Below are positions 52 to 24,075 of a stretch of 64,000 nt of DNA, one piece after another. This DNA is from a virus (Duplodnaviria; Caudoviricetes): the IMG/VR virus record IMGVR_UViG_3300032218_003260. The stretch is one strand, 5' to 3'. Every line of letters begins with the position of its first letter. Within the stretch, counting starts at the first letter, position 1. The notes under the pieces were generated by a model, which was given only the letters and a program-made list of their open reading frames with translations, did no database searches and was not told where the DNA came from. A program made the translations under genes and the position numbers.

Positions 52-78
52 CCCCAAAATCAAAAACAGATTCTGGGG
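52..78 (-). terminator. Stem-loop downstream of the AAA-cassette operon (possible terminator)
   Basis: Minus strand CCCCAGAATC-TGTTTTT-GATTTTGGGG is a 10-bp stem with one G-U pair, about 20 nt past the stop of ORF 99..368; no long U tract. Confidence 0.35.
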
Positions 79-98: not shown

Positions 99-368
99 TT
101 ATTCACGCACTACGTGAACGTTGTACCAGCGCATTTTATCGTTGAGCCACTTGGCCTCGGCGGCGAGTGCGTCTGCGCGCGACTCAAAGTTACGCAAAGA
201 CGGCCCGCCGACTGGCGATAAATCAGCAACCCACTCTCCCGGAATTGTCGGGTCAGGCTCAACGTGACTGGCACGTTTGATATCAAGCTCTCCCAGCGCT
301 TTTAGGTTGATCTCTTCGCCATAGAGACATTGCGCTGAGCCGTTGGGGCGAATGTATAGCTGCATCAT
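99..368 (-). CDS. Conserved small hypothetical protein (89 aa) of the type recalled next to DUF1257/DUF2997/AAA cassettes
   Basis: ORF with CLYGEEINL...RASHVEP...W.ADLSPVGGP.L..F..R..AL.AE..WL pattern; tightly coupled to the upstream gene. Confidence 0.7.
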   Translation of the reverse strand: MMQLYIRPNGSAQCLYGEEINLKALGELDIKRASHVEPDPTIPGEWVADLSPVGGPSLRNFESRADALAAEAKWLNDKMRWYNVHVVRE

Positions 369-369
369 G

Positions 370-1371
370 CTACATCGACATCAGACGTCGAGAGGGTATT
401 AGCTCGTTCATGTTAACCGCTCGCGGCAACTGCGCCACGGCTGCAGGCGTATACAGGTTTTGTCGTCGCCGCTCAGACCTTGACACGTTGTACACATTAA
501 ATTGCGTAATATTGTCAATGATTGCTCCCGCAAACAACGCGTCGTCGTGCACGTCTTCGCGTGGGTAGGTTTGCGACTGGCCATCATACGTGGGGCGGAA
601 AATGATATGACCGCCGGCTGCAACAGCATGGCCGCGAAACGCTAACAGGGCGTTGATTTGTTCGACGTTTGCAATGATGGCGTAGTCAACAACTTTTAAA
701 CGCGACCGTTCAAACGTCGGGTCGTTCTGCTCACGCGAGTAGATCGTGACTTGCATCAGTTTGCTGCCTACGACCTGCGCTTTCCCGGCAATAGTGACAA
801 AGCCGCGAAGCACAGAACTGCTGATTTGCGCCTCGCCGCCGACGTATGCCTGACCTTCGAGTGACGTTTGAATTGCAATCGCTTTTCCCGAAATACCGCA
901 GTTCCCGCGTAACGTGCAACTGATAACGCGGGCGCTGTCTCTGATAAACGCGTTTTCGTACGCAGTTGTCGAGCCAGAAACAATACCGCCGTATACGCGA
1001 GCTTCGTTTGAGAACTGACAGTCGTCCATTACTCGGGCCCGGCCGCTGACGCTCGCAAACTGGCTCAGTTTTACGTTTCCGCTGACGTGCGCGTACCCGC
1101 AGATCTGGGCCCGATTATGCACGCGTACGTTGCCCTCGACACGGGCGTTGTGATACACCTGCGCCAGCTTGTAAACAAAAACCGAATCGGCCACTTTTGC
1201 GGTATCTGCTACCCAGCCCTCGCCGTTAACGTGTCGATGTGCAAACACGCGGCCGTTACCGTCTTTGAAATCATGCTTTGATGCCCGCTTCTTTTTTGGT
1301 TTGACCGCGGTCATCACCGCTGCCGCCGCATCTAGCACGGCGACAGCGCTGTCTTTTTGTTCCTCCATCAC
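370..1371 (-). CDS. Hexapeptide-repeat left-handed beta-helix (LbH) protein
   Basis: HRHVNGEGWVADTAKV leader, then many 6-residue repeats (A.V.GNV.V..RAQI.G.A.VSG). Confidence 0.75.
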   Translation of the reverse strand: MMEEQKDSAVAVLDAAAAVMTAVKPKKKRASKHDFKDGNGRVFAHRHVNGEGWVADTAKVADSVFVYKLAQVYHNARVEGNVRVHNRAQICGYAHVSGNVKLSQFASVSGRARVMDDCQFSNEARVYGGIVSGSTTAYENAFIRDSARVISCTLRGNCGISGKAIAIQTSLEGQAYVGGEAQISSSVLRGFVTIAGKAQVVGSKLMQVTIYSREQNDPTFERSRLKVVDYAIIANVEQINALLAFRGHAVAAGGHIIFRPTYDGQSQTYPREDVHDDALFAGAIIDNITQFNVYNVSRSERRRQNLYTPAAVAQLPRAVNMNELIPSRRLMSM

Positions 1372-2315
1372 GACTCCATCGGAAGGACACGCCGTCTGGG
1401 CGCGTTTGTGATCAGACTGTCGAGCGCGGTTTTAACCTCGCCCATCTGCTGGGTCAGGTTCTGCCGCAAGTTGTTGTTCTTGCGCAGGTCCTTCACGTCG
1501 ACACCTGAAACAATGTCAGTAGCGCGCTGGATTAAAGTATCAAGCTGCGCATTTGAGCGAATATTCATTTGCCGGAAGTTGTCATAGAACTCTTTGAAGT
1601 TTTCGATCGCAGAGTTTTGAAATTTCTTTTTCGTACCGTCAGGCTCGTCGGTCAGCCGCTCGATCAGGTGCGCGATCATGTCCTGCAGCTGCTCGGCAAA
1701 CGCGTTTTCAGCCATGACTACCGCCGTCTCAAACCGGTGCTGGACGCGTTGCTGCTCCTGCTGGTACAGCTCGGGATTGAACGTCATGAGATAGTTCGGC
1801 GGATCAACCGGCGGGTACTCCCACCGAAGGTCAAACACGCCTTCCAGCGACGGCGGATAGTCGTTGGGGTTGTACAGCTCGCCCAGCTTTTCGCGGGCGG
1901 CAACCTTGAGAGTTTCGTACTCTAGCTGCAGGTTTGCGGCAGCCACTACCAGCTGTTCTTTGTATTCGCGCATCCTGTCTTCAAACGCGCCGATGTCGGC
2001 TTGTTTGATGAGGCGCACACCTTCCTGCGGATACGGTAGCGTCATAGAGCGCCAGTACGCCGACGCCTGACTCTTGAGCGTGGTTAGCACGCGATATGTT
2101 GTGTTCTTTGTATCGATAAGGCGCTTGGACGCTGTGACCAGATCGGTGGCGGCATGAAACGTATCAGCGGCTTGCTTGGTCTGCGCATCAGATAGCTTGC
2201 GCTGCGTCCCTAACCACGAGAACGACAGCTTGACGGCGCCCATCGTCTGGCGCAAGTCGCTAGCTGTCTGCTCGACTGTCGTGTTTTCTTCGGTCGTTGT
2301 GTCGGTTGTGGACAT
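1368..2315 (-). CDS. DUF3150-like helical protein
   Basis: 315-aa ORF with AAGGAG RBS; TLPYPQEGVRLI and coiled-coil pattern recalled from proteins next to Ycf46-like AAA ATPases. Confidence 0.55.
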   Translation of the reverse strand: MSTTDTTTEENTTVEQTASDLRQTMGAVKLSFSWLGTQRKLSDAQTKQAADTFHAATDLVTASKRLIDTKNTTYRVLTTLKSQASAYWRSMTLPYPQEGVRLIKQADIGAFEDRMREYKEQLVVAAANLQLEYETLKVAAREKLGELYNPNDYPPSLEGVFDLRWEYPPVDPPNYLMTFNPELYQQEQQRVQHRFETAVVMAENAFAEQLQDMIAHLIERLTDEPDGTKKKFQNSAIENFKEFYDNFRQMNIRSNAQLDTLIQRATDIVSGVDVKDLRKNNNLRQNLTQQMGEVKTALDSLITNAPRRRVLPMES

Positions 2316-2915
2316 TCAGTCTCCTTCTTCGTCTGTGTCAAGTTCTTCTTCAATTGTTTGCTCCACCCACTCGTCGATTGCAAACGCTTGTACAAGTCTC
2401 TTTGGTAATTTTTCTAGTTCGGCCAGATTGTCGGGTACGCTAAACTCTTGAATGTCACCATTGCGGTAAATGCCGCAAAAACCTACGCCCGGCTCAAAGC
2501 AATAGGCTGTGATATCAAAACCTGCAACAACGCGCAGGTGGTCAAAGAACTGAATTGGCGGTGACCAAGCTGAATCGAAAACGAGTGTGATGTGTTTGGA
2601 TTTTGACGGCACGCGCTTTGGCGTTTGATCTGTTTCGCGCCCTACGTCCCACTTTGTTCCCCAATGACCAACCTGCCACTCGTACCAGTTTTTTGCTCCG
2701 TACAGCTCAACGTTTTGGCGTTCTTGCGCTTCTAACGCCAATTGTGCGGCTGACCCATCTGAGCCAGCGCAACCAGCGACAGTCGCTTTCAATTCTTCTG
2801 GGCACGGCAGAAATGTGCTCATGAGACAACCACTGTTCCATGCGCGCACCAACTTGTGCAACTGCTCCGGGTCGTTGTGTTTAAACGTAACTTTGTTGGC
2901 GCACCAGTTAGGCAT
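2316..2915 (-). CDS. DUF1281 / YubB ferredoxin-like domain protein
   Basis: Begins MPNWC.N; contains NWYEW...WGTKWD, F.SAWSPP and EPG.GFCG motifs; start moved to the ATG at 2915. Confidence 0.75.
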   Translation of the reverse strand: MPNWCANKVTFKHNDPEQLHKLVRAWNSGCLMSTFLPCPEELKATVAGCAGSDGSAAQLALEAQERQNVELYGAKNWYEWQVGHWGTKWDVGRETDQTPKRVPSKSKHITLVFDSAWSPPIQFFDHLRVVAGFDITAYCFEPGVGFCGIYRNGDIQEFSVPDNLAELEKLPKRLVQAFAIDEWVEQTIEEELDTDEEGD

Positions 2916-2926
2916 TGCGTTGGCTT

Positions 2927-2973
2927 GCAATCCGCAGCTGCGGGGCAGTGATGCCCCGCAGCCGCAGTATTGC
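2927..2973 (-). other. Long intergenic hairpin (21 bp, one bulge)
   Basis: Minus GCAAT(A)CTGCGGCTGCGGGGCA-TCAC-TGCCCCGCAGCTGCGGATTGC; two G-U pairs favour a minus-strand RNA. Confidence 0.65.
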
Positions 2974-2979
2974 TAGCAC

Positions 2980-4464
2980 TTAGCCCTTGGCGGGCGCCGC
3001 GACACGGCGCGGTCGCTGCGTTGTAACAGCCGGCTTACCAACACGCGTGTAAATACCGCGGTTGTCAGCCGACAGGCAGCGACCTTCAGCCCAGCCGCGC
3101 AGCCGCTCAATCTGCTCAGCCGACGTCACGGAGATCGGTACCACGTTCTGCGCCGCTTCAACAAGCGGGATATCAAGCAGCGCCGCGAGACGGCAGCACG
3201 ACTTGATCTCGGCGCCCGTCCAGTTGGCGTCGTCCGGCTTTTCCTGCGACTCATCTACGCCGAAATGCTTCAGGTAGATATCCCAGATCGCCGCGCGCTG
3301 GTCAGCGCCGGGCAGATCCACGAAGAAGATACCGTCGAAGCGCTCGGCGCGGGCAAACGGCGCCGGCAGCTGGCTGGCGTCGTTGCAGGTACCGATGAAG
3401 AACACATCGGACGTGTGGTCGTTGAGCCACGTCAGCAGCGTGCCGAACAGGCGAGCTGAGACACCGGAATCGGTCTGACCAGAGCTTCCGACGCCGGCAA
3501 GACCCTTCTCGATCTCGTCGACGAACAGAACGCACGGGGCCATGGCGTCGACCTGCTTGAGCGCACGCCGCATGTTACCCTCGGACTCGCCCACGAACTT
3601 ACCCATGAGCGAACCGAAATCCAGCATTACGGTCGGACGACCGACCTCGTTGCCAAGTGCTTTGGCAAACTGCGACTTGCCGCAGCCCGGAGGCGACAGC
3701 AGTAGCACGCCCTTGGGGCGTTTTTCTACGTTGGTTTCGCCCTGACGCCGCATGGCGCGCAGGCAGAAACTCTTTAGGTTTTCGAGACCACCAAGGTTCT
3801 CGAAGTTTGCGTCACCGCGATACAGCGTCATCGTCCCGCTCTTTTCGAGCGTCTGGGCTTTGATACCCCAGATCGTATCAGGCGACAGCTTATTATTGCG
3901 CACCAGCGACAGCGCGAAGGCGTTCTCGGCCTCCTGCCGCGTCAGGCCACGTGAGGCGTCGACGACAGCAGCTACGTCCTGCTCGGCCGGCTTGGCGAAC
4001 GGAGAGCCGTCCGGGAACAGCTCGTTGCAGACCGTGGTCAGCTGCGGGAGATCCGGCAGCTCGTGATGCACTACCGTGAACAGCTTCTCAACCTCGGGTT
4101 GCAGCTGCAGCACCGGCGCCACGATAATGATATGTTTACCTTCGCCCTTACCCTGCACCACACGGTTAGCCAGAGCCTGCAGCACCTCGGGGTTACCAAG
4201 GAAGCGATGAAAATTCTTCAGAACGAGCAGCATCGGCTGCTTGGGCTGCGGCTGGTCGAGAAACCGCAACGCCTGAAGCGGGCCGGGAGCCGGAGCGGCA
4301 CCCGAATACAGCTGGCGGTCGATGTCCCACACATCAAAACCCCAGTCCTTTTCTTCAGTTACGCGGCGAATCGACGCAATCGCGTCATCGCACTCCTGTG
4401 ATTCAATCCAGATGCCGGAGAAGCCGGCGCAAACCAGCTCCTTAATTTCTTTTTCGAGCGACAC
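2980..4464 (-). CDS. AAA+ ATPase, Ycf46/SpoVK-like
   Basis: Walker A SPPGCGKS, Walker B LFVDEIEK, arginine-finger region ARAERFD, N-terminal degenerate AAA-like domain (LVLKNFHRFL). Confidence 0.9.
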   Translation of the reverse strand: MSLEKEIKELVCAGFSGIWIESQECDDAIASIRRVTEEKDWGFDVWDIDRQLYSGAAPAPGPLQALRFLDQPQPKQPMLLVLKNFHRFLGNPEVLQALANRVVQGKGEGKHIIIVAPVLQLQPEVEKLFTVVHHELPDLPQLTTVCNELFPDGSPFAKPAEQDVAAVVDASRGLTRQEAENAFALSLVRNNKLSPDTIWGIKAQTLEKSGTMTLYRGDANFENLGGLENLKSFCLRAMRRQGETNVEKRPKGVLLLSPPGCGKSQFAKALGNEVGRPTVMLDFGSLMGKFVGESEGNMRRALKQVDAMAPCVLFVDEIEKGLAGVGSSGQTDSGVSARLFGTLLTWLNDHTSDVFFIGTCNDASQLPAPFARAERFDGIFFVDLPGADQRAAIWDIYLKHFGVDESQEKPDDANWTGAEIKSCCRLAALLDIPLVEAAQNVVPISVTSAEQIERLRGWAEGRCLSADNRGIYTRVGKPAVTTQRPRRVAAPAKG

Positions 4465-4503
4465 GTGTGACCTTTGTTTTTGTTTTGTAAGAACTTGCTA
4501 TTG

Positions 4504-4695
4504 TCAGTTGCTTTCCGTAATCTGCTCGTCATTACTGGCAATGTAAAAATCGCCGGTAAGCTGCTCGTCCACCTTTGCGCCCAACGCCTGTTCCAGCGCT
4601 CGCGTCGCGTCCTGACAAGAGCTGCCGGTAAAACCGAAAGTTTCGATCTTGGTGCCGCCCTTCGGGTCGACAACGATATGAATGGTCTTCGACAT
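4504..4695 (-). CDS. DUF2997 family protein
   Basis: 63 aa; I.I.VDP.G...IET.GF.G.SC..AT..LE.ALG pattern; directly upstream of the AAA ATPase. Confidence 0.8.
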   Translation of the reverse strand: MSKTIHIVVDPKGGTKIETFGFTGSSCQDATRALEQALGAKVDEQLTGDFYIASNDEQITESN

Positions 4696-4697
4696 GT

Positions 4698-5063
4698 TTA
4701 GAAACCTCCCGTCAGGCTGAGTTTGACCGAACCGTCCGGCAGCATCTCCTCGAACACCGAGTAGCCGCCCTTCTGAGCTTCGTAGATCGCCTTTTCGACC
4801 GCGTACGCCTGCAGGAACCTGTCCAACTCTTCCTGCCTACCCCACGCGCCGTTGTAGTTATCGTACGCCGCGGCGCCGGTTTCCGTATTGAACACGGCCG
4901 GGTACTGCCAGCCCGGGAGCTTCACAGCCAGTCCATCGGCACTCTGGCCGGCGAACAGCACATGATGCCCGGCCTTTGGGGCCTCAAACCCGAGACGCTT
5001 GCAGGCCGCTTCAACCGCGGCAGCGTCTTTTACTTCCGTCTTGATCTGAACAATGTGAGACAT
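4698..5063 (-). CDS. DUF1257 (Ycf35-like) family protein
   Basis: MSHIV.IKTEV.D...V..AC..LG start; YDNYNG.WG, QAYAVEKA..EA...G and E..L.DGS.KL motifs. Confidence 0.8.
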   Translation of the reverse strand: MSHIVQIKTEVKDAAAVEAACKRLGFEAPKAGHHVLFAGQSADGLAVKLPGWQYPAVFNTETGAAAYDNYNGAWGRQEELDRFLQAYAVEKAIYEAQKGGYSVFEEMLPDGSVKLSLTGGF

Positions 5064-5087: not shown

Positions 5088-5387
5088 TTAAGGTAGTTCT
5101 TGAAGTGCACACACAACTGTGTTTTCAAATTGTTCCGGCGAGATGTAATCATTGCCGGCAAAATATTCCAATACAGCAACCGCAATTTTGCGATTGTAAA
5201 CGTATTTAAACTGTAGCGGACCGCGCGGCGTATCTAAGCGATATTCCGTGATATCGTGTAACGACACGACTTCTGGAATTGCGATAACGTCGCTGTATTT
5301 TTTTCGTAACTCATTAAGCTCGTCGAGCGCCGTCAGAATGCGTTCGCGATCTTCGTCAAAACAATCTTCATTGTCGTAGGGCGTCAT
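5088..5387 (-). CDS. Hypothetical protein (99 aa)
   Basis: ORF fills the gap; ATGA overlap with the upstream gene. Confidence 0.6.
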   Translation of the reverse strand: MTPYDNEDCFDEDRERILTALDELNELRKKYSDVIAIPEVVSLHDITEYRLDTPRGPLQFKYVYNRKIAVAVLEYFAGNDYISPEQFENTVVCALQELP

Positions 5388-5692
5388 CGGTACGCGATGA
5401 TCTCTGCTTTAGTCTCTATCCAAACATGCGCGCCGCACGAGAGTGGCGCGTCTGGGGAGTACACAACCTGCGATTCGCCGCGGACGTCGACGTGTTTTGC
5501 CGCGTACGTTTTGTTGCGCCACTTGATCGTCAGTGGCGGCACGCGCAGGTTTTGTTTTTTGTTATCGCGGATAATGTGCTGGTTAACGTGTATACGTTTA
5601 ATCGTCCCAGCGGGCATTGTCATTTCATCGGCGTCCCCCGGGAAACGCAGCGGAATACGGGGCTCCAACAGGCAGACGTCTTCTGTCGCCAT
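5384..5692 (-). CDS. Conserved phage hypothetical protein
   Basis: IHVNQH.IR.N......P.TIK...VVYSPD.PLSCGA.VWIET, a pattern recalled from aquatic phage proteins. Confidence 0.7.
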   Translation of the reverse strand: MATEDVCLLEPRIPLRFPGDADEMTMPAGTIKRIHVNQHIIRDNKKQNLRVPPLTIKWRNKTYAAKHVDVRGESQVVYSPDAPLSCGAHVWIETKAEIIAYR

Positions 5693-5760: not shown

Positions 5761-6612
5761 TTACGACGCAACTACCGAGCGCAACTTCTTGTGCTCAGCC
5801 AGAATGTTGCCGGCCATGTCGTAGCAACCGTCGCAAGCAGCCAGAAACGCCGTCGCAGCCTTGAGCTGATCCATCGGCAGCGTCGTCGAACCAGACGGCC
5901 CGCGCGCGACCGGCCGCTTCGGGGCGGCGCTCTTCGCCGGCTCTTCCTTCCGCTTGTGGCGCGCCGCGTCGCGGGTCCGCTCTTCGCCCGCAGCTACGGC
6001 CTCGCCGCGCTTTGCGGGAGCTACGCCTGCTTTCTTCAACAGCTGGCTCACTTGAGCCGGGCTGACTTCAACACGCTTCTTGGCGAGCGCCGCCACGATG
6101 TCAACACCGCGGAGCGAGTCACCAGACTCCTGCCGACGCTCGATCTCCTCGCGGATGTGATCGGCGCCGCTTTTCTTCTCGGCCATATCTTTCACCTTCC
6201 CTTTTCTGGTCTTGGTCGCATTGGGCGCCTCGACCGGGTCATCGTCTTCGTCGGCTTCCACAGTGGAGTCGACAGCTTCGTCCGAAACCTCGTCGCCGTC
6301 TTCCGGCTCATACTCGGTTTCGTCGTCTTCGTCGTCGGTCAGCTTCGCGGCCGTCGAGCGGACGTCTTCGCTGCCTTCGTCTTCGTAATCGGCTTCAGCG
6401 TATGCCGCTTCGTCGTCGACTGTGTCTTCTTCAAGCTCGGCGTCGACATTTGCGTCAACGTCTTCGTCGTCGTAATCTTCTGGTGTCGCGAACCGCATCC
6501 CTGTGGTTCCTTTCTCCTTCTTGTCTTTCTCTGCGGGTGCCTTGCTGGTTGCGCCCGGAAGTGGCTTTCCCCACAGATTTGCCGGACTCACAAACTCGTC
6601 AGCCTTGGCCAT
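5761..6612 (-). CDS. Acidic low-complexity protein with a C-terminal putative DNA-binding domain
   Basis: AGGAGAGG RBS before the ATG at 6612; D/E-rich N half; ADHIREEI...GVDIVAALAKKRVEVSPAQVSQLLKK and DQLKAA..F motifs. Confidence 0.7.
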   Translation of the reverse strand: MAKADEFVSPANLWGKPLPGATSKAPAEKDKKEKGTTGMRFATPEDYDDEDVDANVDAELEEDTVDDEAAYAEADYEDEGSEDVRSTAAKLTDDEDDETEYEPEDGDEVSDEAVDSTVEADEDDDPVEAPNATKTRKGKVKDMAEKKSGADHIREEIERRQESGDSLRGVDIVAALAKKRVEVSPAQVSQLLKKAGVAPAKRGEAVAAGEERTRDAARHKRKEEPAKSAAPKRPVARGPSGSTTLPMDQLKAATAFLAACDGCYDMAGNILAEHKKLRSVVAS

Positions 6613-6720
6613 AGTGTCCTCTCCTAAAGCGCCGCCGGCCGAAACATTTCGGCCTCGTTGTGCGGCTAAATGAAAAATACACCACCGGAAACAAAAATCA
6701 ACTATTGCAGAAAACAACCG

Positions 6721-7083
6721 TTATTTGCTGCTTCTGTAGTTGTCCGGCACGTTGCCATCTTTAGTGCGAAGTGCGCCGGCATTTAGCTCGGGCCACTTCT
6801 CTAGCGAGTGGATGGCGCCGATGACATTCCATGCAGCGTGACCAAGATGGTCTTCACTGCGGTCGCCGTTCAAGAAATTGTAGATGTGCGCAATCGCGTG
6901 GTTTAGCAGGTCAGAGACGGGCATGCCGTTTTCCCAGTTGTACGGGCCAAACTTTTCAGCCCCTTCGTGGTAAGTCTGCGCTAGCGCGCGTAGACCAATC
7001 GGCGAAATTAGATCGTAGCGCACGGCGTCGCAATCGGCGCTGCGTACGGCGCCAGTGTCGTACTCGTGGCGTTCGTTGCTCAT
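6721..7083 (-). CDS. dATP/dGTP diphosphohydrolase domain protein (DUF5664)
   Basis: TGAVR...RYDLI.P..L..LA.....GAEK.G..NW..G......HA..H......EDHL.HAAWN. Confidence 0.85.
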   Translation of the reverse strand: MSNERHEYDTGAVRSADCDAVRYDLISPIGLRALAQTYHEGAEKFGPYNWENGMPVSDLLNHAIAHIYNFLNGDRSEDHLGHAAWNVIGAIHSLEKWPELNAGALRTKDGNVPDNYRSSK

Positions 7084-8128: not shown

Positions 8129-8307
8129 CTGCGTTTTCGTTTGTGGGTAGTGTCTGTGGCGCCGCGCATGAAGCACGCACCACTATAGATTGCTGCGCCA
8201 GCTACTACGAGACCGGCGACGCCAATTTGCGGTATTGCGCAAATTCCGGCAAGAAGCATAAGCGTTGCGTACCCGGCGAAGGTAGCTTGCGGGTCTGGTT
8301 GTGACAT
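8125..8307 (-). CDS. Small two-TM membrane protein with basic C-terminus (holin-like topology)
   Basis: 60 aa; two hydrophobic segments then HKRKRR; TAATG coupling to the upstream gene. Confidence 0.5.
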   Translation of the reverse strand: MSQPDPQATFAGYATLMLLAGICAIPQIGVAGLVVAGAAIYSGACFMRGATDTTHKRKRR

Positions 8308-8531
8308 TACGGTGCCTGACTGTCGCCGTGCGGCCACACCTGTGTTCGAGTTGTGTCCGGCGCGGCCGGGTTAAATTGATATTGCGGTAGCGGCAACGGC
8401 GCCTCAAGTTTAAGATGGTTTACGGCGTTATCAGGGAAATAGAGCTGCGGCCCGGGGCCGCGGCGAGTGCCCTCAACGTAGTGCTGTTTTCGTTCCTGAT
8501 ACAGTTTTGCAGAGCGTCCGACGTTTGCCAT
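8307..8531 (-). CDS. Hypothetical protein (74 aa)
   Basis: GGAGG RBS and an upstream TATACT; TAATG coupling to the next gene. Confidence 0.6.
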   Translation of the reverse strand: MANVGRSAKLYQERKQHYVEGTRRGPGPQLYFPDNAVNHLKLEAPLPLPQYQFNPAAPDTTRTQVWPHGDSQAP

Positions 8532-8567
8532 ATAACCTCCAAAAAGTACGCGGCCGGGTCACCGTTT

Positions 8568-8573
8568 AGTATA
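8568..8573 (-). promoter_or_regulatory. Putative -10 element TATACT
   Basis: About 35 nt upstream of the ATG at 8531; the same hexamer recurs in intergenic DNA near 12770, 59303 and 62478. Confidence 0.35.
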
Positions 8574-8737
8574 CCCGGACGCGCACCCATCACTTGCGAG
8601 TCGTTTCTTTGGCGGCGGCAGCTGCAACCTGACACATGTAACCTAGTACATTTGCCAGCCCAGCAAGACCGTATATGAAAACATGCCCTGTGTATTTGAG
8701 GCTGTCTTCAACCCATTGAAATTCTGACTCGCTACCG

Positions 8738-10669
8738 TTGTTATTGTGGTTCATGGATAAACCTAATCAAACAGTTACTGAAGCAGTTGACATGCCTTCC
8801 GTAGGCGTGCAATCACTTCTACAAGAATTAATCTCAATCGACGTGACGGATGTACATTCTGTTCACGCGCGAGCGGCTGTTTTGCAGCAGCTCGCCGGTC
8901 GGCATGCTTTCCCGTCACTGGAACCGATTTTACCGCTAGTTCTGAATCTTAACGGGCGCCCGTACAGCATTCAGAATCATATGCCTTTTTCCCCACTTTT
9001 CCGGCTACTGACGCCGAAAAATCAAGTGTGGTGCACGGGGCGGCAGGTATCAAAATCGACCAGCCTAGCAGCGCACGGAGTTGTAGTTGCCAACTCTCTC
9101 CCGTTTTTTAAGACGTTATTCATCACACCGCTGTACGAACAGATACGGCGGTTTTCGAATAACTATGTGCGTCCGTTTATCGACCAGTCTCCTGTGAAGT
9201 CGCAATGGAGCGGCACGACGACCGAGAATTCAGTTCTGCAAAGATCTTTTAAGAACAATTCAATGATGTTGTTCAGCTTTGCGCTTTTAGATTCGGATCG
9301 TGTGCGCGGTGTTTCTGCAGACCGTGTGTGTATCGACGAAGTTCAGGACATGGATCCTGATCACGTGCCGATCATTCAAGAAACGATGTCTTACTCCAAA
9401 TGGGGGACTAGTTATTACACAGGAACGCCGAAGACGCTAGATAATTTAATTTACGGATTGTATAAACGATCATCACAAGCCGAGTGGTTTATACCGTGTC
9501 ATTCATGCAAGCACTGGAGCATCCCTTCGCTTGAATATGACTTGGACAAAATGATCGGCCCATACAGCGTGCATATCAGCGAGAAGTATCCGGGCACCGT
9601 CTGCGCTAAGTGTCAGAAACCGATCAGCCCAAGGCATGGTCGGTGGGTGCACAGATATCCCGAACGCCGCTGGCAATTTGCCGGGTATCACGTACCACAG
9701 ATGATACTACCGCTTCATTTCTCCGACCCTGAAAAGTGGTCAACTCTATTGTTGAAAAGAGAAGGGTTTGGGAACATGACCCAAGCCCAGTTCTACAACG
9801 AAGTAATGGGAGAAAGCGTTGATACCGGTCAGAAGCTCATCAGCGAAACTGATTTGAAGGCTGCGTGCGTGCTAGACTGGGAAAACAAGAAAGAACCAGA
9901 CCCTAAGTGCTTTGCAAATCTCTCGAACTACAAACATCGCATCCTTGCGGTCGACTGGGGCGGCGGCGGAGAAGCAGGTATTAGTTTCACCGTGCTTGCT
10001 GTGCTGGGGTTCCGCCCGGACGGGACCGTCGACACGCTTTGGGCCAAGCGCCTGCTTATTGGCGGCGATCATTTGGCCGAAGCTGTTGAATGTATGCGCT
10101 GGTCTAACTTGTTTAATTGCGATTTTGTTGCTCACGATTACACGGGTGCCGGCACGGTCCGCGAAACGGTCATGGTGCAGGCAGGATTTAATCTAGAGCG
10201 AGTCTTGGCGATGCGGCTCGTTCGTTCCGCATCGCAAGATTTGATGGTGTTCAAACCACCGACAGAGATCAATCATCGGGCACACTATAGCCTCGACAAA
10301 ACGCGGTCGTTGCTGTACACGTGTCAGGCGATCAAGCTGAAGCAAGTCCGTTTCTTCCAGTACGATTGGTCGTCACAGGATTCGCCGGGCTTGGTGTCGG
10401 ACTTTCTTGCGTTGGTAGAAAGTAAAGCCGAGTCTAGACTAGGCGGCGATATTTATACCATTACAAGGAACACGTTGTTGACTGACGACTTCGCGCAAGC
10501 TGTTAACCTAGGCTGCGCCGCTCTTTGGCACGTGAATAACGCGTGGCCTAATTTCGCGGAGATCGCTGGCGTAGCGCGGTTAAGCGAGCGTGTTGTCAAA
10601 GCCGAGACGCCGATGGATGACGACTGGGCGGATGACTCCATCGGGCGAAGCTACTTTGGCGGTTACTAG
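8738..10669 (+). CDS. Terminase large subunit (GpA-like)
   Basis: Walker A GRQVSKST, Walker B CIDEVQD, coupling motif GTPK, two CxxC (CHSC, CAKC), FYNEVMGE, nuclease AVDWG. Confidence 0.9.
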   Translation: MLLWFMDKPNQTVTEAVDMPSVGVQSLLQELISIDVTDVHSVHARAAVLQQLAGRHAFPSLEPILPLVLNLNGRPYSIQNHMPFSPLFRLLTPKNQVWCTGRQVSKSTSLAAHGVVVANSLPFFKTLFITPLYEQIRRFSNNYVRPFIDQSPVKSQWSGTTTENSVLQRSFKNNSMMLFSFALLDSDRVRGVSADRVCIDEVQDMDPDHVPIIQETMSYSKWGTSYYTGTPKTLDNLIYGLYKRSSQAEWFIPCHSCKHWSIPSLEYDLDKMIGPYSVHISEKYPGTVCAKCQKPISPRHGRWVHRYPERRWQFAGYHVPQMILPLHFSDPEKWSTLLLKREGFGNMTQAQFYNEVMGESVDTGQKLISETDLKAACVLDWENKKEPDPKCFANLSNYKHRILAVDWGGGGEAGISFTVLAVLGFRPDGTVDTLWAKRLLIGGDHLAEAVECMRWSNLFNCDFVAHDYTGAGTVRETVMVQAGFNLERVLAMRLVRSASQDLMVFKPPTEINHRAHYSLDKTRSLLYTCQAIKLKQVRFFQYDWSSQDSPGLVSDFLALVESKAESRLGGDIYTITRNTLLTDDFAQAVNLGCAALWHVNNAWPNFAEIAGVARLSERVVKAETPMDDDWADDSIGRSYFGGY

Positions 10670-11016: not shown

Positions 11017-11434
11017 GCTCCATTCCTTTTTCGGTTATTGAGAAATTGAAATCGTTTTTATCGTAGTCGTATTCTGCGTCTAGAAAACCGCGCTGCACGC
11101 CGACACGCATAACGTTTGATATAACGCGCGCACCGAGCGCACGAAACAGTCGAAGCATTTTTGTCTTGTACTCTTCGAACGAGTTGGCACCAATGCCGTA
11201 CGCGCCGTCAGCCTGCACGTCAGACAGTTCACGAACAATTTGTTCGACTTCCCAGACCTCCAAAAACTGTCGCTGATATTCAAGCGAGCATTCACTTTCG
11301 GTCGGTTCTTCGTTCTGCAGCTTGGCGATAAAACCGGCGAACATCACTAGTACATGATCGCGGAGATCTTCGATCGACCCGCAAATACGCCGCGCGGGCT
11401 GTTCTTCGTTTTCGTCTTCGTAGTCTTCGAACAT
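10952..11434 (-). CDS. Hypothetical protein
   Basis: GAGGT RBS before the ATG at 11434 (MFEDYEDE). Confidence 0.65.
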   Translation of the reverse strand: MFEDYEDENEEQPARRICGSIEDLRDHVLVMFAGFIAKLQNEEPTESECSLEYQRQFLEVWEVEQIVRELSDVQADGAYGIGANSFEEYKTKMLRLFRALGARVISNVMRVGVQRGFLDAEYDYDKNDFNFSITEKGMELVNSINNSNDADGGETSRSGS

Positions 11435-11441
11435 AACTACC

Positions 11442-11762
11442 TCAAGCCATCTCTGCGGCAAGACGAGCAGTGGCGAGCGCGGCGTCGTAATTGCCGCGCG
11501 CAATCATACGCGCGTGAGCGGCGTCACGGCACTGCCCCAGATAATCGGAGTAGTCGCTGTCGGTGTTGACGAGCGCTTCCGCCGAACTGAAGCTGTGCGG
11601 CTTGTTGGTCAGCGGGTTGTCGCCGCTTTTCATGATCCGCTCGACCGCAGCCATTTTGACAGAGATGCGGTTGTCTTCCAGCTCTGCCTCGCTGCGCACA
11701 GCGTCGGCAAGAACGGCGGCGGCGTGGGTAATGTTATCAGCAAAATTCTTGGCCATGATCAC
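11442..11762 (-). CDS. Hypothetical helical protein
   Basis: GAGGAG RBS; Ala-rich helical ORF. Confidence 0.65.
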   Translation of the reverse strand: MIMAKNFADNITHAAAVLADAVRSEAELEDNRISVKMAAVERIMKSGDNPLTNKPHSFSSAEALVNTDSDYSDYLGQCRDAAHARMIARGNYDAALATARLAAEMA

Positions 11763-22851: not shown

Positions 22852-24075
22852 CTACGACTGCGCGGCGGCTTTAACGGCCGCTCTGAGTGTCGCGTTTGTT
22901 TGCAGTTCGGCGATAAGCTGACTAAGCGTTAATTCGCCGTGTGGCCCTGTCGGCCCTGTTGCGCCCATGTTGCCGCACGGCCCGGTAGCGCCGGTATGGC
23001 CGACGCCTGTCGCCCCAGTGGCCCCACGCGGCCCTGACGGCCCTGTTACGCCGCGAGGTCCTGTGGCGCCTTGAATACCGGTAGCCCCGGCGGCGCCGCG
23101 TGAGCCGCGTGCGCCGGCTGGGCCAGATTGACCCTGCGGCCCCTGAGCACCCTGCGGCCCGGCGTTACCTTGCGGACCCATCAAACCCTGTGGCCCAATT
23201 AATCCCTGCGGCCCTTGCGCGCCTTGCGGCCCGCGGTCACCCTTGGGCCCTGTCTGACCTTTAGGTCCGGTTGCTCCGGTCGCGCCGATACCCCCGGTGG
23301 CCCCTGTGGCGCCATCAATGCCGTTTTTACCGGCCGGGCCTGTCGGGCCTGTCGGGCCTGTCGGGCCTTTTGGTCCGGTGGGCCCTGTAGATCCGCGCGG
23401 CCCGGTCGCGCCTGTTGCGCCTGTGGCCCCGCGCGGTCCCGTAGGTCCTGTTGCGCCCGTAAAACCTACTGCGCCCTGCGGACCAGTTGCGCCACGAGGA
23501 CCCGTGGGGCCGATTTTTCCCGTCGGTCCAGTTGGACCCGTTGCGCCTTTTTCGCCTTTATCGCCTTTATCGCCTTTATTGCCTTGCGGGCCTCGCGGGC
23601 CTGTCATGCCAGTGGGGCCTTTATCTCCTTTATCGCCTTTTTCTCCTTTATCTCCTTTGTCGCCTTTTTCTCCTTTATCGCCTTGCGGGCCCGGCATGCC
23701 GATAGCGCCTACGGGTCCTTGAATACCCATGTCGCCTTTTTCGCCTTTTTCGCCTTTATCGCCTTTATTGCCTCTTTCTCCGCGATCACCTTTATTGCCT
23801 TGATCGCCTTTTTCGCCTTTTTCGCCTTTATCGCCTTTGTCGCCTTTGCTGCCTGTGTCGCCTTTGTCACCTTTGTCGCCGCTATCGCCCTTGTCGCCAT
23901 CGTCTCCTTTATCGCCGCTATCGCCCTGCGGACCCGGCGAACCTTGCGGGCCCGGCGGTCCGGGTTCTCCCCGCGGCCCGGGCGGACCGGGCGTACAGCC
24001 GCTTGACGAGAGTTTTGGTCCCTCGTACGGAACAAACTCAATTTCGTTGTCGTTGCTATTAAAAGGCGCAGTCAT
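22852..24075 (-). CDS. Collagen-like fibre protein
   Basis: About 350 aa of uninterrupted Gly-X-Y (GDK/GEK, then GAT/GPT); short helical C-terminus. Confidence 0.9.
22943..23007. repeat. 65-bp exact direct repeat, copy 1 (copy 2 at 24300-24364)
   Basis: Identical sequence encoding [22 protein letters not shown] in both collagen genes. Confidence 0.9.

Follow-up and report, generated by a model that had tools for sequence, protein, structure and literature searches.

Five linked genes around a classical-clade AAA+ ATPase recur in phages and in integrative elements of Planctomycetota

AAA+ unfoldases that work with dedicated partner proteins are a familiar kind of machine. Cdc48 reads ubiquitin or SAMP tags, and the action of ClpX on the MuA transpososome and of ClpA on P1 RepA represents AAA+ remodelling of the nucleoprotein complexes of mobile elements. 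The genes ycf35 and ycf46 have been known for decades as conserved "hypothetical chloroplast open reading frames (ORFs)". In freshwater red-algal plastids the two were lost together (PMC5940233), and cyanobacterial ycf46 lies with other genes in a strongly stress-induced three-gene operon and has been tied to stress, to CO2 use, and to a reported interaction with KaiC, with no mechanism (PMC7496141, PMC13683863). The 64,000-nucleotide stretch analysed in this study (hereafter, the window) comes from a tailed phage (Caudoviricetes; IMG/VR record IMGVR_UViG_3300032218_003260) and carries, between positions 99 and 5063, the genes of a AAA+ ATPase (AAA), a Ycf35-like DUF1257 protein, a DUF2997 protein, a DUF3150-family protein, and an 89-amino-acid orphan protein (p89). 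These five core genes co-occur far beyond chance in other genomes, and full-text searches of the available library for the three DUF families found no paper describing this five-gene module. Their best reading is as a conserved, self-contained unit of mobile DNA, which belongs to the backbone of its carriers rather than to their interchangeable cargo.

The initial annotation expected the five genes to be found together elsewhere, and this expectation was strongly borne out from three anchors, i.e., AAA in viral contigs, p89 in prokaryotic genomes, and p89 in viral contigs. The first anchor yielded 70 loci, 48 of which form a close clade with the window (AAA at least 68% identical) and 22 of which are divergent (29 to 47%). 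The close-clade loci keep the order of the gene train, with DUF1257 and DUF2997 each present in 47 of the 48, DUF3150 in 42, and p89 in 34; the shortfalls correspond to contig ends. With iterative profiles, DUF3150 was detected in 16 of the 22 divergent loci, DUF1257 and DUF2997 in 11 each (both in 10), and p89 in 6, and every divergent locus retains at least one partner. The second anchor, p89 searched in one genome per prokaryote species, yielded 253 confirmed loci, almost all from Planctomycetota and with several per genome. Where the p89 locus spans at least 14 kb, DUF3150 directly precedes p89 (40/40), AAA lies within 10 kb upstream in 30/40, and DUF1257 and DUF2997 are present in 22/40. 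The 10-kb limit undercounts AAA, because the gene can lie up to 18 kb upstream of p89; in an 8.9-Mb Thermoguttaceae genome with four p89 copies, three of the copies are preceded by AAA at distances of 2, approximately 10 to 12 (where the gene is split), and 18 kb.

The third anchor produced 95 confirmed p89 loci in viral contigs, including 42 that are new and unrelated to the clade of the window. The 27 new loci of at least 15 kb all contain DUF1257 and DUF2997, and AAA (E < 1e-40) and DUF3150 are present in 24 and 22 of them, respectively. With the genes written as A (AAA), Y (DUF1257), Z (DUF2997), P (p89), and D (DUF3150), at least eight gene orders were observed, including AYZPD (18 loci), ADYZP (10 loci), DYZPA, PYZA, APDYZ, and YZADP, the last being that of the window. 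The set has been retained through repeated rearrangement, which argues for a functional link and for co-occurrence that is selected rather than merely inherited as synteny. One carrier is a cultured phage, Rhizobium phage vB_RleS_L338C, in which AAA is gene 050, DUF1257 is 052 (hhalign probability 96%), DUF2997 is 053, and a p89-like protein is 054 (85%).

As judged from its motifs, AAA is a classical-clade AAA+ ATPase. It consists of a family-specific N-terminal half (residues 1 to 218) followed by a single classical AAA domain, and its best solved relatives are Cdc48/p97 (D1/D2), AFG2, and VAT (E 5e-44 to 1e-38). The intact Walker A and B motifs and arginine finger described in the initial annotation are invariant or nearly so in 27 diverse homologues (29 to 81% identity). 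G260, G262, and K263 of the Walker A motif (S-P-P-G-C-G-K-S) are invariant, as are N361 of sensor 1 and the arginines R372 and R375 of the second region of homology (SRH), which align with the SRH of p97/Cdc48 in HMMER, and D316 and E317 of the Walker B motif (V-L-F-V-D-E) are at least 90% conserved. The pore loop of the window copy, K-F-V-G-E-S-E, aligns with M-W-F-G-E-S-E of Cdc48 D2. With its pore loop and its intact classical-clade motifs, AAA is most naturally read as a motor that remodels proteins.

The likeness to Cdc48, p97, and VAT comprises the Walker A and B motifs, sensor 1, an SRH with two arginines, a K-[FWYL]-x-G-E-S-E pore loop, an N-terminal region that might dock cofactors, and dedicated small partner proteins. 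On the other hand, the phage AAA has one active domain in 494 residues, compared with approximately 800 residues, and its N-terminal half is unlike the N domain of Cdc48. Furthermore, DUF1257, DUF2997, DUF3150, and p89 resemble no known Cdc48 cofactor, and the phage has no ubiquitin-like system. Alignment of the N-terminal half of AAA with its AAA half in hhalign was topologically sensible but weak (P 0.0016, probability 16%), too weak for a degenerate D1 domain to be claimed. A clamp-loader identity was rejected; the best matches are of the Cdc48 type, with SRH and pore loop, and the clamp-loader family phrog_168 reaches only E 8.8e-4.

Within its arm of the phage genome, AAA is the best-conserved gene. 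In three relatives it is interrupted by a group I intron (RF00028, 68.6 to 72.2 bits against a gathering score of 50; L039:6939-7721, L042:6384-7171, and L053:6954-7741), which splits the gene directly after the V-L-F-V-D codons of the Walker B motif and carries a 186-amino-acid ORF with an HNH-like motif (L039:7137-7697). The AAA genes of L040, L043, and L044 are broken at the same point (residue 319), and the window copy is intron-free. Group I introns of this kind tend to home into conserved, important core genes of phages. Both the intron in the Walker B codons and the rank of AAA as the best-conserved gene of its arm speak for backbone status. Two further irregularities of AAA copies were observed. 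In the divergent homologues L065:2087-3622 and L063:2795-4279, the Walker B segment (G-F-V-D-E-I-E-K-G-L-A-G ... D-S-G-V-S) precedes Walker A (G-H-A-G-T-G-K-S) and is not found at its usual place, so that the AAA core looks circularly permuted. Of the copies in the 8.9-Mb Thermoguttaceae genome, one (G001:C1:4063467-4066361) is split at about residue 180 by approximately 1.3 kb and has one TAG codon in its N-terminal piece, i.e., it is decayed or interrupted.

The DUF1257 copy of the window scores 17.7 bits, below the Pfam threshold of 22.2, and PF06868 matches 18 of 23 aligned relatives (best E 4.4e-15); the label holds at the level of the family alignment. M1, S2, and H3 are invariant in all 23 sequences, including that of the window, and an N-terminal M-S-H is reported for essentially all Ycf35 proteins (PMC13060386), a signature that the phage protein shares. 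D68, Y87, A96, and G100 are also invariant, and C21 is nearly so. DUF2997 scores 54.6 bits (threshold 24.1) over the full 47-position model (1-47), and its invariant residues are G13, C27, and G39, with C27 as the sole invariant cysteine. Across the compared gene orders, DUF2997 is always directly 3' of DUF1257, and the two are fused into a single protein in two viral loci, L208 and L219. A DUF2997-ycf35-fed7 cluster is found in cyanobacteria (PMC4284462). From S2 and H3 of DUF1257, the cysteine in each protein, and the ferredoxin gene (fed7) as a neighbour, the DUF1257-DUF2997 pair may be metal- or redox-linked, and it may respond to redox state or to a metal.

AAA resembles Ycf46 (Slr0374 / Synpcc7942_0417) in its length of approximately 500 amino acids and in the position of the AAA domain in the C-terminal half, and the Joint Genome Institute (JGI) names its homologues "SpoVK/Ycf46/Vps4 family". 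An Atlas feature search with residues 1 to 218 returned top clusters that are commonest in Cyanobacteriota (0.97 to 0.98) and a ycf46-named cluster at 0.85. With these names and feature-search scores as leads, membership of AAA in the Ycf46 family is plausible. The module differs from the cyanobacterial genes in its DUF3150 and p89 members, which are unreported beside ycf46 or ycf35.

The initial annotation described the fourth protein as a DUF3150-like coiled coil. Its family assignment is supported by its relatives and by its fold, whereas a simple coiled coil is not what the predicted structure contains. PF11348 matches 9 of 18 profile-linked relatives (best E 1.3e-20); it matches neither the window copy at E ≤ 1 nor the Planctomycete copies, and a PF11348 scan of three Planctomycete/other genomes and 14 control genomes found nothing, i.e., the model misses this subfamily. 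In the structural model (predicted local distance difference test [pLDDT] score, 89), a bundle of four helices comes after an N-terminal alpha/beta domain that has two long helices. The model superimposes on an Atlas cluster named "DUF3150 domain-containing protein" with template modelling (TM) scores of 0.79/0.75 (291 residues; root mean square deviation [rmsd], 2.9), and the feature search gave 0.98 to a cluster with 18% PF11348. The family is very large, with 11,139 clusters at 50% identity (E ≤ 0.001). A wide structural aligner found for residues ~180 to 310 only a generic four-helix bundle (Z up to 10, a range common for helical bundles), and comparison of the alignment profile with solved structures returned only designed helical bundles and STAT coiled coils at E ≥ 0.009. 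A tblastn search with a Pfam-positive DUF3150 member gave no match in the collections of cultured phages and plasmids. An indexed homologue search gave members of the close clade only, and the JGI label "DNA polymerase III psi subunit" on three close homologues (P0317, P0342, and P0343) was not reproduced by Pfam.

The p89 protein has no match in Pfam, PHROG, NCBIfam, or PADLOC, and it is the most sharply conserved of the small proteins of the module, with 14 columns invariant in 52 sequences, including R-A-S-H-V-E-P, W46, D49, and R64. Foldseek searches of the p89 and DUF3150 models against the PDB returned nothing at E ≤ 0.001. The p89 model (pLDDT, 88) is weakly HicB-N/UPF0150-like according to three methods that agree and are all weak, namely, a match to HicB3 (Z 4.3, rmsd 3.5, 59 residues), a Foldseek match at E 2.4, and TM scores of 0.46 to 0.51 to Atlas HicB_lk_antitox clusters. 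Fusions with DUF3150 account for 29 of 120 longer p89 proteins and are mostly singletons, and p89 is found fused to any adjacent gene (f4, f12, f11, a ligase, and f33); since it is joined to whatever adjoins it, these fusions are largely read-through or assembly artefacts and carry little weight.

Planctomycetota carry the module as the backbone of small integrative elements, which are multi-copy and have their genes on one strand. It makes up about half the genes of these elements, and no copy of a multi-copy element lacks it. In gene order, a large serine recombinase (Resolvase and Recombinase domains; phrog_95, 2.7e-46), a 204-amino-acid protein, DUF1257, and DUF2997 are followed, in some elements after DUF6878 and DUF6915, by AAA and the variable slot, and then by DUF3150, p89, and an 85-amino-acid protein. 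Optional genes for a ThiS-like protein, a 351-amino-acid protein, JAB, and ThiF come next, and after them a 482-amino-acid protein that matches phrog_947 (3.5e-18), a processivity factor of phage DNA polymerase, a 180-amino-acid protein, and a PD-(D/E)XK exonuclease. The link of ycf35- and ycf46-like genes to planctomycete mobile elements, made in the initial annotation, is supported by these loci, by the M-S-H signature and PF06868 matches of DUF1257, and by the joint loss in plastids (PMC5940233). The slot between AAA and DUF3150 holds an ATP-dependent DNA ligase in several elements and an Rrf2 regulator, a protoglobin, HPP, a cupin, and a methyltransferase elsewhere (L159:6215-9954); in the Thermoguttaceae genome it extends up to 18 kb (G001:C2:1125562-1145132), and in the window it contains p204.

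Genes of DNA metabolism adjoin the module in several lineages. In L064, an SF2 helicase and a DnaG-type primase lie directly downstream of the AAA-DUF3150 pair, and cluster-mates of this helicase are near the module in L059, L061, L068, and L071. A ligase is nearby in L063, L065, L066, and L070 and in L226 and L231 to L233, a PD-(D/E)XK nuclease directly follows p89 in at least nine viral loci, and in the Rhizobium phage a replicative helicase is located approximately 2 kb downstream of the p89-like gene.

We propose that the module encodes a AAA+ remodelling machine of the element backbone with two facultative pairs of partners, acting in establishment, replication, or recombination; we give this proposal somewhat less than an even chance. 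Its hub would be a single-ring classical AAA+ unfoldase, which would assemble as a hexamer. DUF1257 with DUF2997, and DUF3150 with p89, would be two facultative pairs of adaptors, regulators, or substrates, most likely docking on the N-terminal half of AAA. With ATP, the machine would remodel or dismantle some complex, of protein or of protein and nucleic acid, while the phage or integrative element establishes itself or while its DNA is replicated or recombined. From the genomic linkage, the DUF1257-DUF2997 fusions, and the mostly singleton DUF3150-p89 fusions, we infer that the five proteins may belong to one physical complex. A complex prediction of AAA, p89, and DUF3150, with DUF3150 as the scored partner, gave 0.01 against a mark of 0.32 and weighs neither way. 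Of the protein- or membrane-remodelling machine proposed in the initial annotation, the protein motor fits the intact AAA and its pore loop; the membrane part gained no support, as no transmembrane or membrane-binding family was found. As a functional analogy only, ClpX and ClpA are also unfoldases that serve an element, and the present module lies between a recombinase and replication/recombination genes. The Clp/Hsp100 proteins are, however, encoded by the host and have no element-encoded dedicated partners, whereas this AAA is element-encoded and of the classical clade.

Several observations weigh against such a machine. DUF3150 is the only partner in 10 of the 22 divergent AAA-anchored loci, which makes the set facultative, and five loci have DUF1257, DUF2997, and p89 with no gene of the size of DUF3150. 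Homologous AAAs in Mycobacterium cluster-O phages and in a Streptococcus satellite have no detectable partners; hidden Markov models and hhalign recovered none in Mycobacterium phage Dylan or in Streptococcus satellite Javan368. The pore-loop aromatic residue is replaced by leucine in most Planctomycete copies, as in p97 D1. In a complete 205-kb relative of the phage, the PolA and DnaB-like genes are approximately 32 to 37 kb from the module, so the replication context is not universal, and library and structure scans recognised no DNA-binding, nuclease, or peptidase domain in the five core proteins. Finally, the slot between AAA and DUF3150 in Planctomycetes holds 0 to 18 kb of unrelated cargo, to which two conserved blocks flanking a cargo site fit as well as one machine.

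The initial annotation suggested that the phage uses the machine for host takeover or anti-defence. In such a role AAA, guided by the small partners, would extract or unfold a protein of the host, for instance a regulator or an effector of defence, at an early stage of infection or once an element has entered the cell. We consider this unlikely, and no direct support for it was obtained. The module does lie within a long same-strand arm of small uncharacterised genes, typical of early or accessory regions, which also holds a DUF1281/Api92-like gene and DUF3085, a family enriched in broad-host-range plasmids (PMC12826799), and its carriers, phages and integrative elements, both need to establish themselves in a new cell. 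However, anti-defence genes usually vary among close relatives, whereas the order of the module is kept in all 48 close-clade loci and the module recurs in many lineages; the conservation of AAA and its intron-homing status point the same way. The proteins show no similarity to known anti-defence proteins, PADLOC giving only generic AAA similarity, and the neighbours in several lineages are genes of replication and recombination (helicase, primase, ligase, PD-(D/E)XK nuclease, and a clamp-like protein).

It is distinctly unlikely that the module consists of separate backbone blocks with separate jobs, DUF1257-DUF2997(-AAA) on the one hand and DUF3150-p89 with the downstream recombination genes on the other, held together by shared regulation and descent. 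The long cargo between AAA and DUF3150 in Planctomycetes would suit this arrangement, as would the indiscriminate fusions of p89 and its changing position, next to DUF2997 in most phages and next to DUF3150 in Planctomycetes and the clade of the window. The cyanobacterial DUF2997-ycf35 cluster, moreover, includes fed7 and not ycf46 (PMC4284462). Against it, descent alone is insufficient for five families that are found together in at least eight orders in unrelated phages, and a search that starts from p89 alone recovers AAA and DUF3150 in most long viral loci (24/27 and 22/27). In plastids, ycf35 and ycf46 were lost together even though they are not adjacent there (PMC5940233).

A role in defence or superinfection exclusion, in which AAA would be an IetA-like sensor or effector protecting the host or resident element from competing phages, is very unlikely. 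IetAS comprises the AAA ATPase IetA and the serine protease IetS, and the PADLOC IetA and NCBIfam IteA models match the AAA domain (E 7e-16 and 2e-14, respectively). These matches are weaker than those to Cdc48, the proteasomal ATPases (PAN), and FtsH and reflect only the generic AAA fold; PADLOC found no IetS-like protease or other effector among nine neighbouring proteins, and the partners and the pattern of conservation differ from those of IetAS. Defence cargo does occur in the same elements. One Planctomycete locus adjoins a type I restriction S subunit, and about 11 of 35 long Planctomycete loci (e.g., L083, L085, L098, L109, L119, L128, L129, L137, and L138) contain a Bil-like cassette (ThiS-like, 81 amino acids; a 351-amino-acid gene; Prok-JAB; and ThiF, 239 amino acids) after p89/f4, on the same strand and interleaved with backbone genes. 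The module itself is kept across a large phage clade and in every copy of a multi-copy element, which is the pattern of a backbone and not of defence islands.

This cassette has the same order as BilABCD (ISG15-like ubiquitin-like protein [Ubl], E2, JAB, and E1) and lies beside the module in approximately one-third of Planctomycete elements. Profiles built from the Planctomycete ThiS, ThiF, JAB, and f17 found nothing in the phage record or in the 70 and 42 viral loci; the cassette is a neighbour of the module and no part of it, and the module is neither IetAS nor a Bil system. A segregase in which AAA acts on proteins tagged by the neighbouring Ubl-E1-E2-JAB cassette has hardly any probability, since, for all its same-strand position directly after p89/f4 and the identity of the nearest solved AAA relatives (Cdc48/p97), the cassette is missing from two-thirds of Planctomycete loci and from all viral loci tested, the phage included, and no ubiquitin-binding domain was recognised in AAA or its partners.

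The window corresponds to bases 12683 to 76643 of the 76.6-kb virus record, which has a CheckV completeness of 37%. Among the proteins of the record are a large terminase, a collagen-like tail fibre, and a baseplate wedge protein, and its close relatives are contigs of 198 to 205 kb, which makes the source a phage from freshwater with about 200 kb of DNA. Related sequences were seen mostly in freshwater metagenomes, and no RNA run was listed for them among public runs. The module is therefore phage-borne, as first annotated. It belongs to a long minus-strand gene train, which starts at approximately 8.7 kb, divergent to the terminase gene, runs leftwards through positions 5063 to 99, and extends 12.7 kb past window position 1. 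The five named genes were correctly placed, all on the minus strand (Table 1), and the spacing of neighbouring genes along the train from g99 to p89 (24, 2, 39, 49, 0, -4, and 1 nt; the negative value is an overlap) agrees with the tight coupling that was described; the description of a five-gene operon overlooked two interleaved genes, p204 and p333. The former, which probably starts six codons further in, at an ATG, occurs in no more than 11 of the 48 close-clade loci. The latter, whose match to Bactofilin (E 2.3e-5) is below the cut-off, is present in 37 of the 48 and nowhere else among the compared loci. At the head of the train, g102 overlaps g99 by 4 nt; it is found in 47 of the 48 close-clade loci but is missing from all 22 divergent ones, and g99 is restricted to the close clade (32/48). 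The hairpin beyond p89 (66-nt fold, -17.4 kcal/mol, z -2.7) was not listed by the terminator scan; the module may end or be processed there.

Table 1. Positions of the module genes and adjoining features in the window
Feature	Position	Strand	Match or signature
g102, 102 aa (amino acids), head of the gene train	5384..5692	-	phrog_8676 E 1.9e-14
g99, 99 aa, clade-specific	5088..5387	-	no family match in library scans
DUF1257/Ycf35-like, 121 aa, core gene Y	4698..5063	-	PF06868 E 0.0042, below cut-off; phrog_20456
DUF2997, 63 aa, core gene Z, 2 nt after DUF1257	4504..4695	-	PF11211 E 1e-14
AAA+ ATPase, 494 aa, core gene A (hub)	2980..4464	-	PF00004 E 1.7e-27 over 253-383; phrog_8638 2e-82
p204, DUF1281_C/Api92-like, slot between AAA and DUF3150	2316..2930	-	PF18406 E 0.0039, below cut-off; phrog_20518 8e-17
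DUF3150-family protein, 315 aa, core gene D	1368..2315	-	relatives match PF11348
p333, beta-solenoid (bactofilin/YdcK/hexapeptide-like), between DUF3150 and p89	370..1371	-	phrog_5070 4e-26; YdcK_fam 7e-12
p89, 89-aa orphan, core gene P	99..368	-	RASHVEP ... W..D ... PVGGP ... GPF..R..AL.AE..WL signature
Hairpin, 10 bp, 21 nt past p89 stop, no T-run	52..78	-	read from sequence

Other genes of the phage were noted in passing. Directly upstream of g102, positions 5761-6717 (minus strand) encode a very acidic protein of 318 amino acids with a long D/E-rich middle and a basic C-terminal part, which has no family match. Farther upstream in the same train, positions 6721-7083 (minus strand) encode a 120-amino-acid protein matching phrog_18716 (7.7e-21) and, more weakly, the phage dATP/dGTP pyrophosphohydrolase family phrog_801 (1.3e-9). 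The collagen-like repeat tail-fibre gene at 22852-24075 (minus strand; phrog_5073, 1.7e-118) lies in a stretch of raised G+C content (0.59) and strong AT skew. Downstream of p89 in the phage, the run L002:8287-11617 (G000:C1, minus strand) contains DUF6878 (11033-11617), DUF6915 (10155-10529), DUF3085 (9719-10174), and a 487-amino-acid DUF6745 protein (8287-9750). DUF6878 and DUF6915 also occur within the Planctomycete modules, between DUF2997 and AAA. DUF3085 is known from conjugative plasmids; it adjoins RadC there, and no other factor shows a stronger enrichment in plasmids of broad host range (PMC12826799).

The module makes up about half the genes of small Planctomycetota elements and is conserved in phages of about 200 kb, and it probably performs a basic, so far undescribed task of mobile DNA. 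Because the Rhizobium phage vB_RleS_L338C is a cultured carrier, the module is directly testable with phage genetics and pull-downs. Families related to ycf35 and ycf46 are physically linked here on mobile DNA, where they travel with the very large DUF3150 family and with p89, neither of which has been studied. A possible, if doubtful, extension is that all of these are parts of one ancient machine, scattered in cyanobacteria and plastids (Ycf46, Ycf35, and DUF2997) and still linked on mobile DNA, in which Ycf35 and DUF2997 would be a heterodimeric adaptor or sensor of a Ycf46-type unfoldase, and DUF3150 and p89 would be an adaptor pair, specific to mobile elements, that directs the motor to replication and recombination complexes. 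If this is true, the module of the phage would show how two plastid ORFs work that have long gone unexplained.

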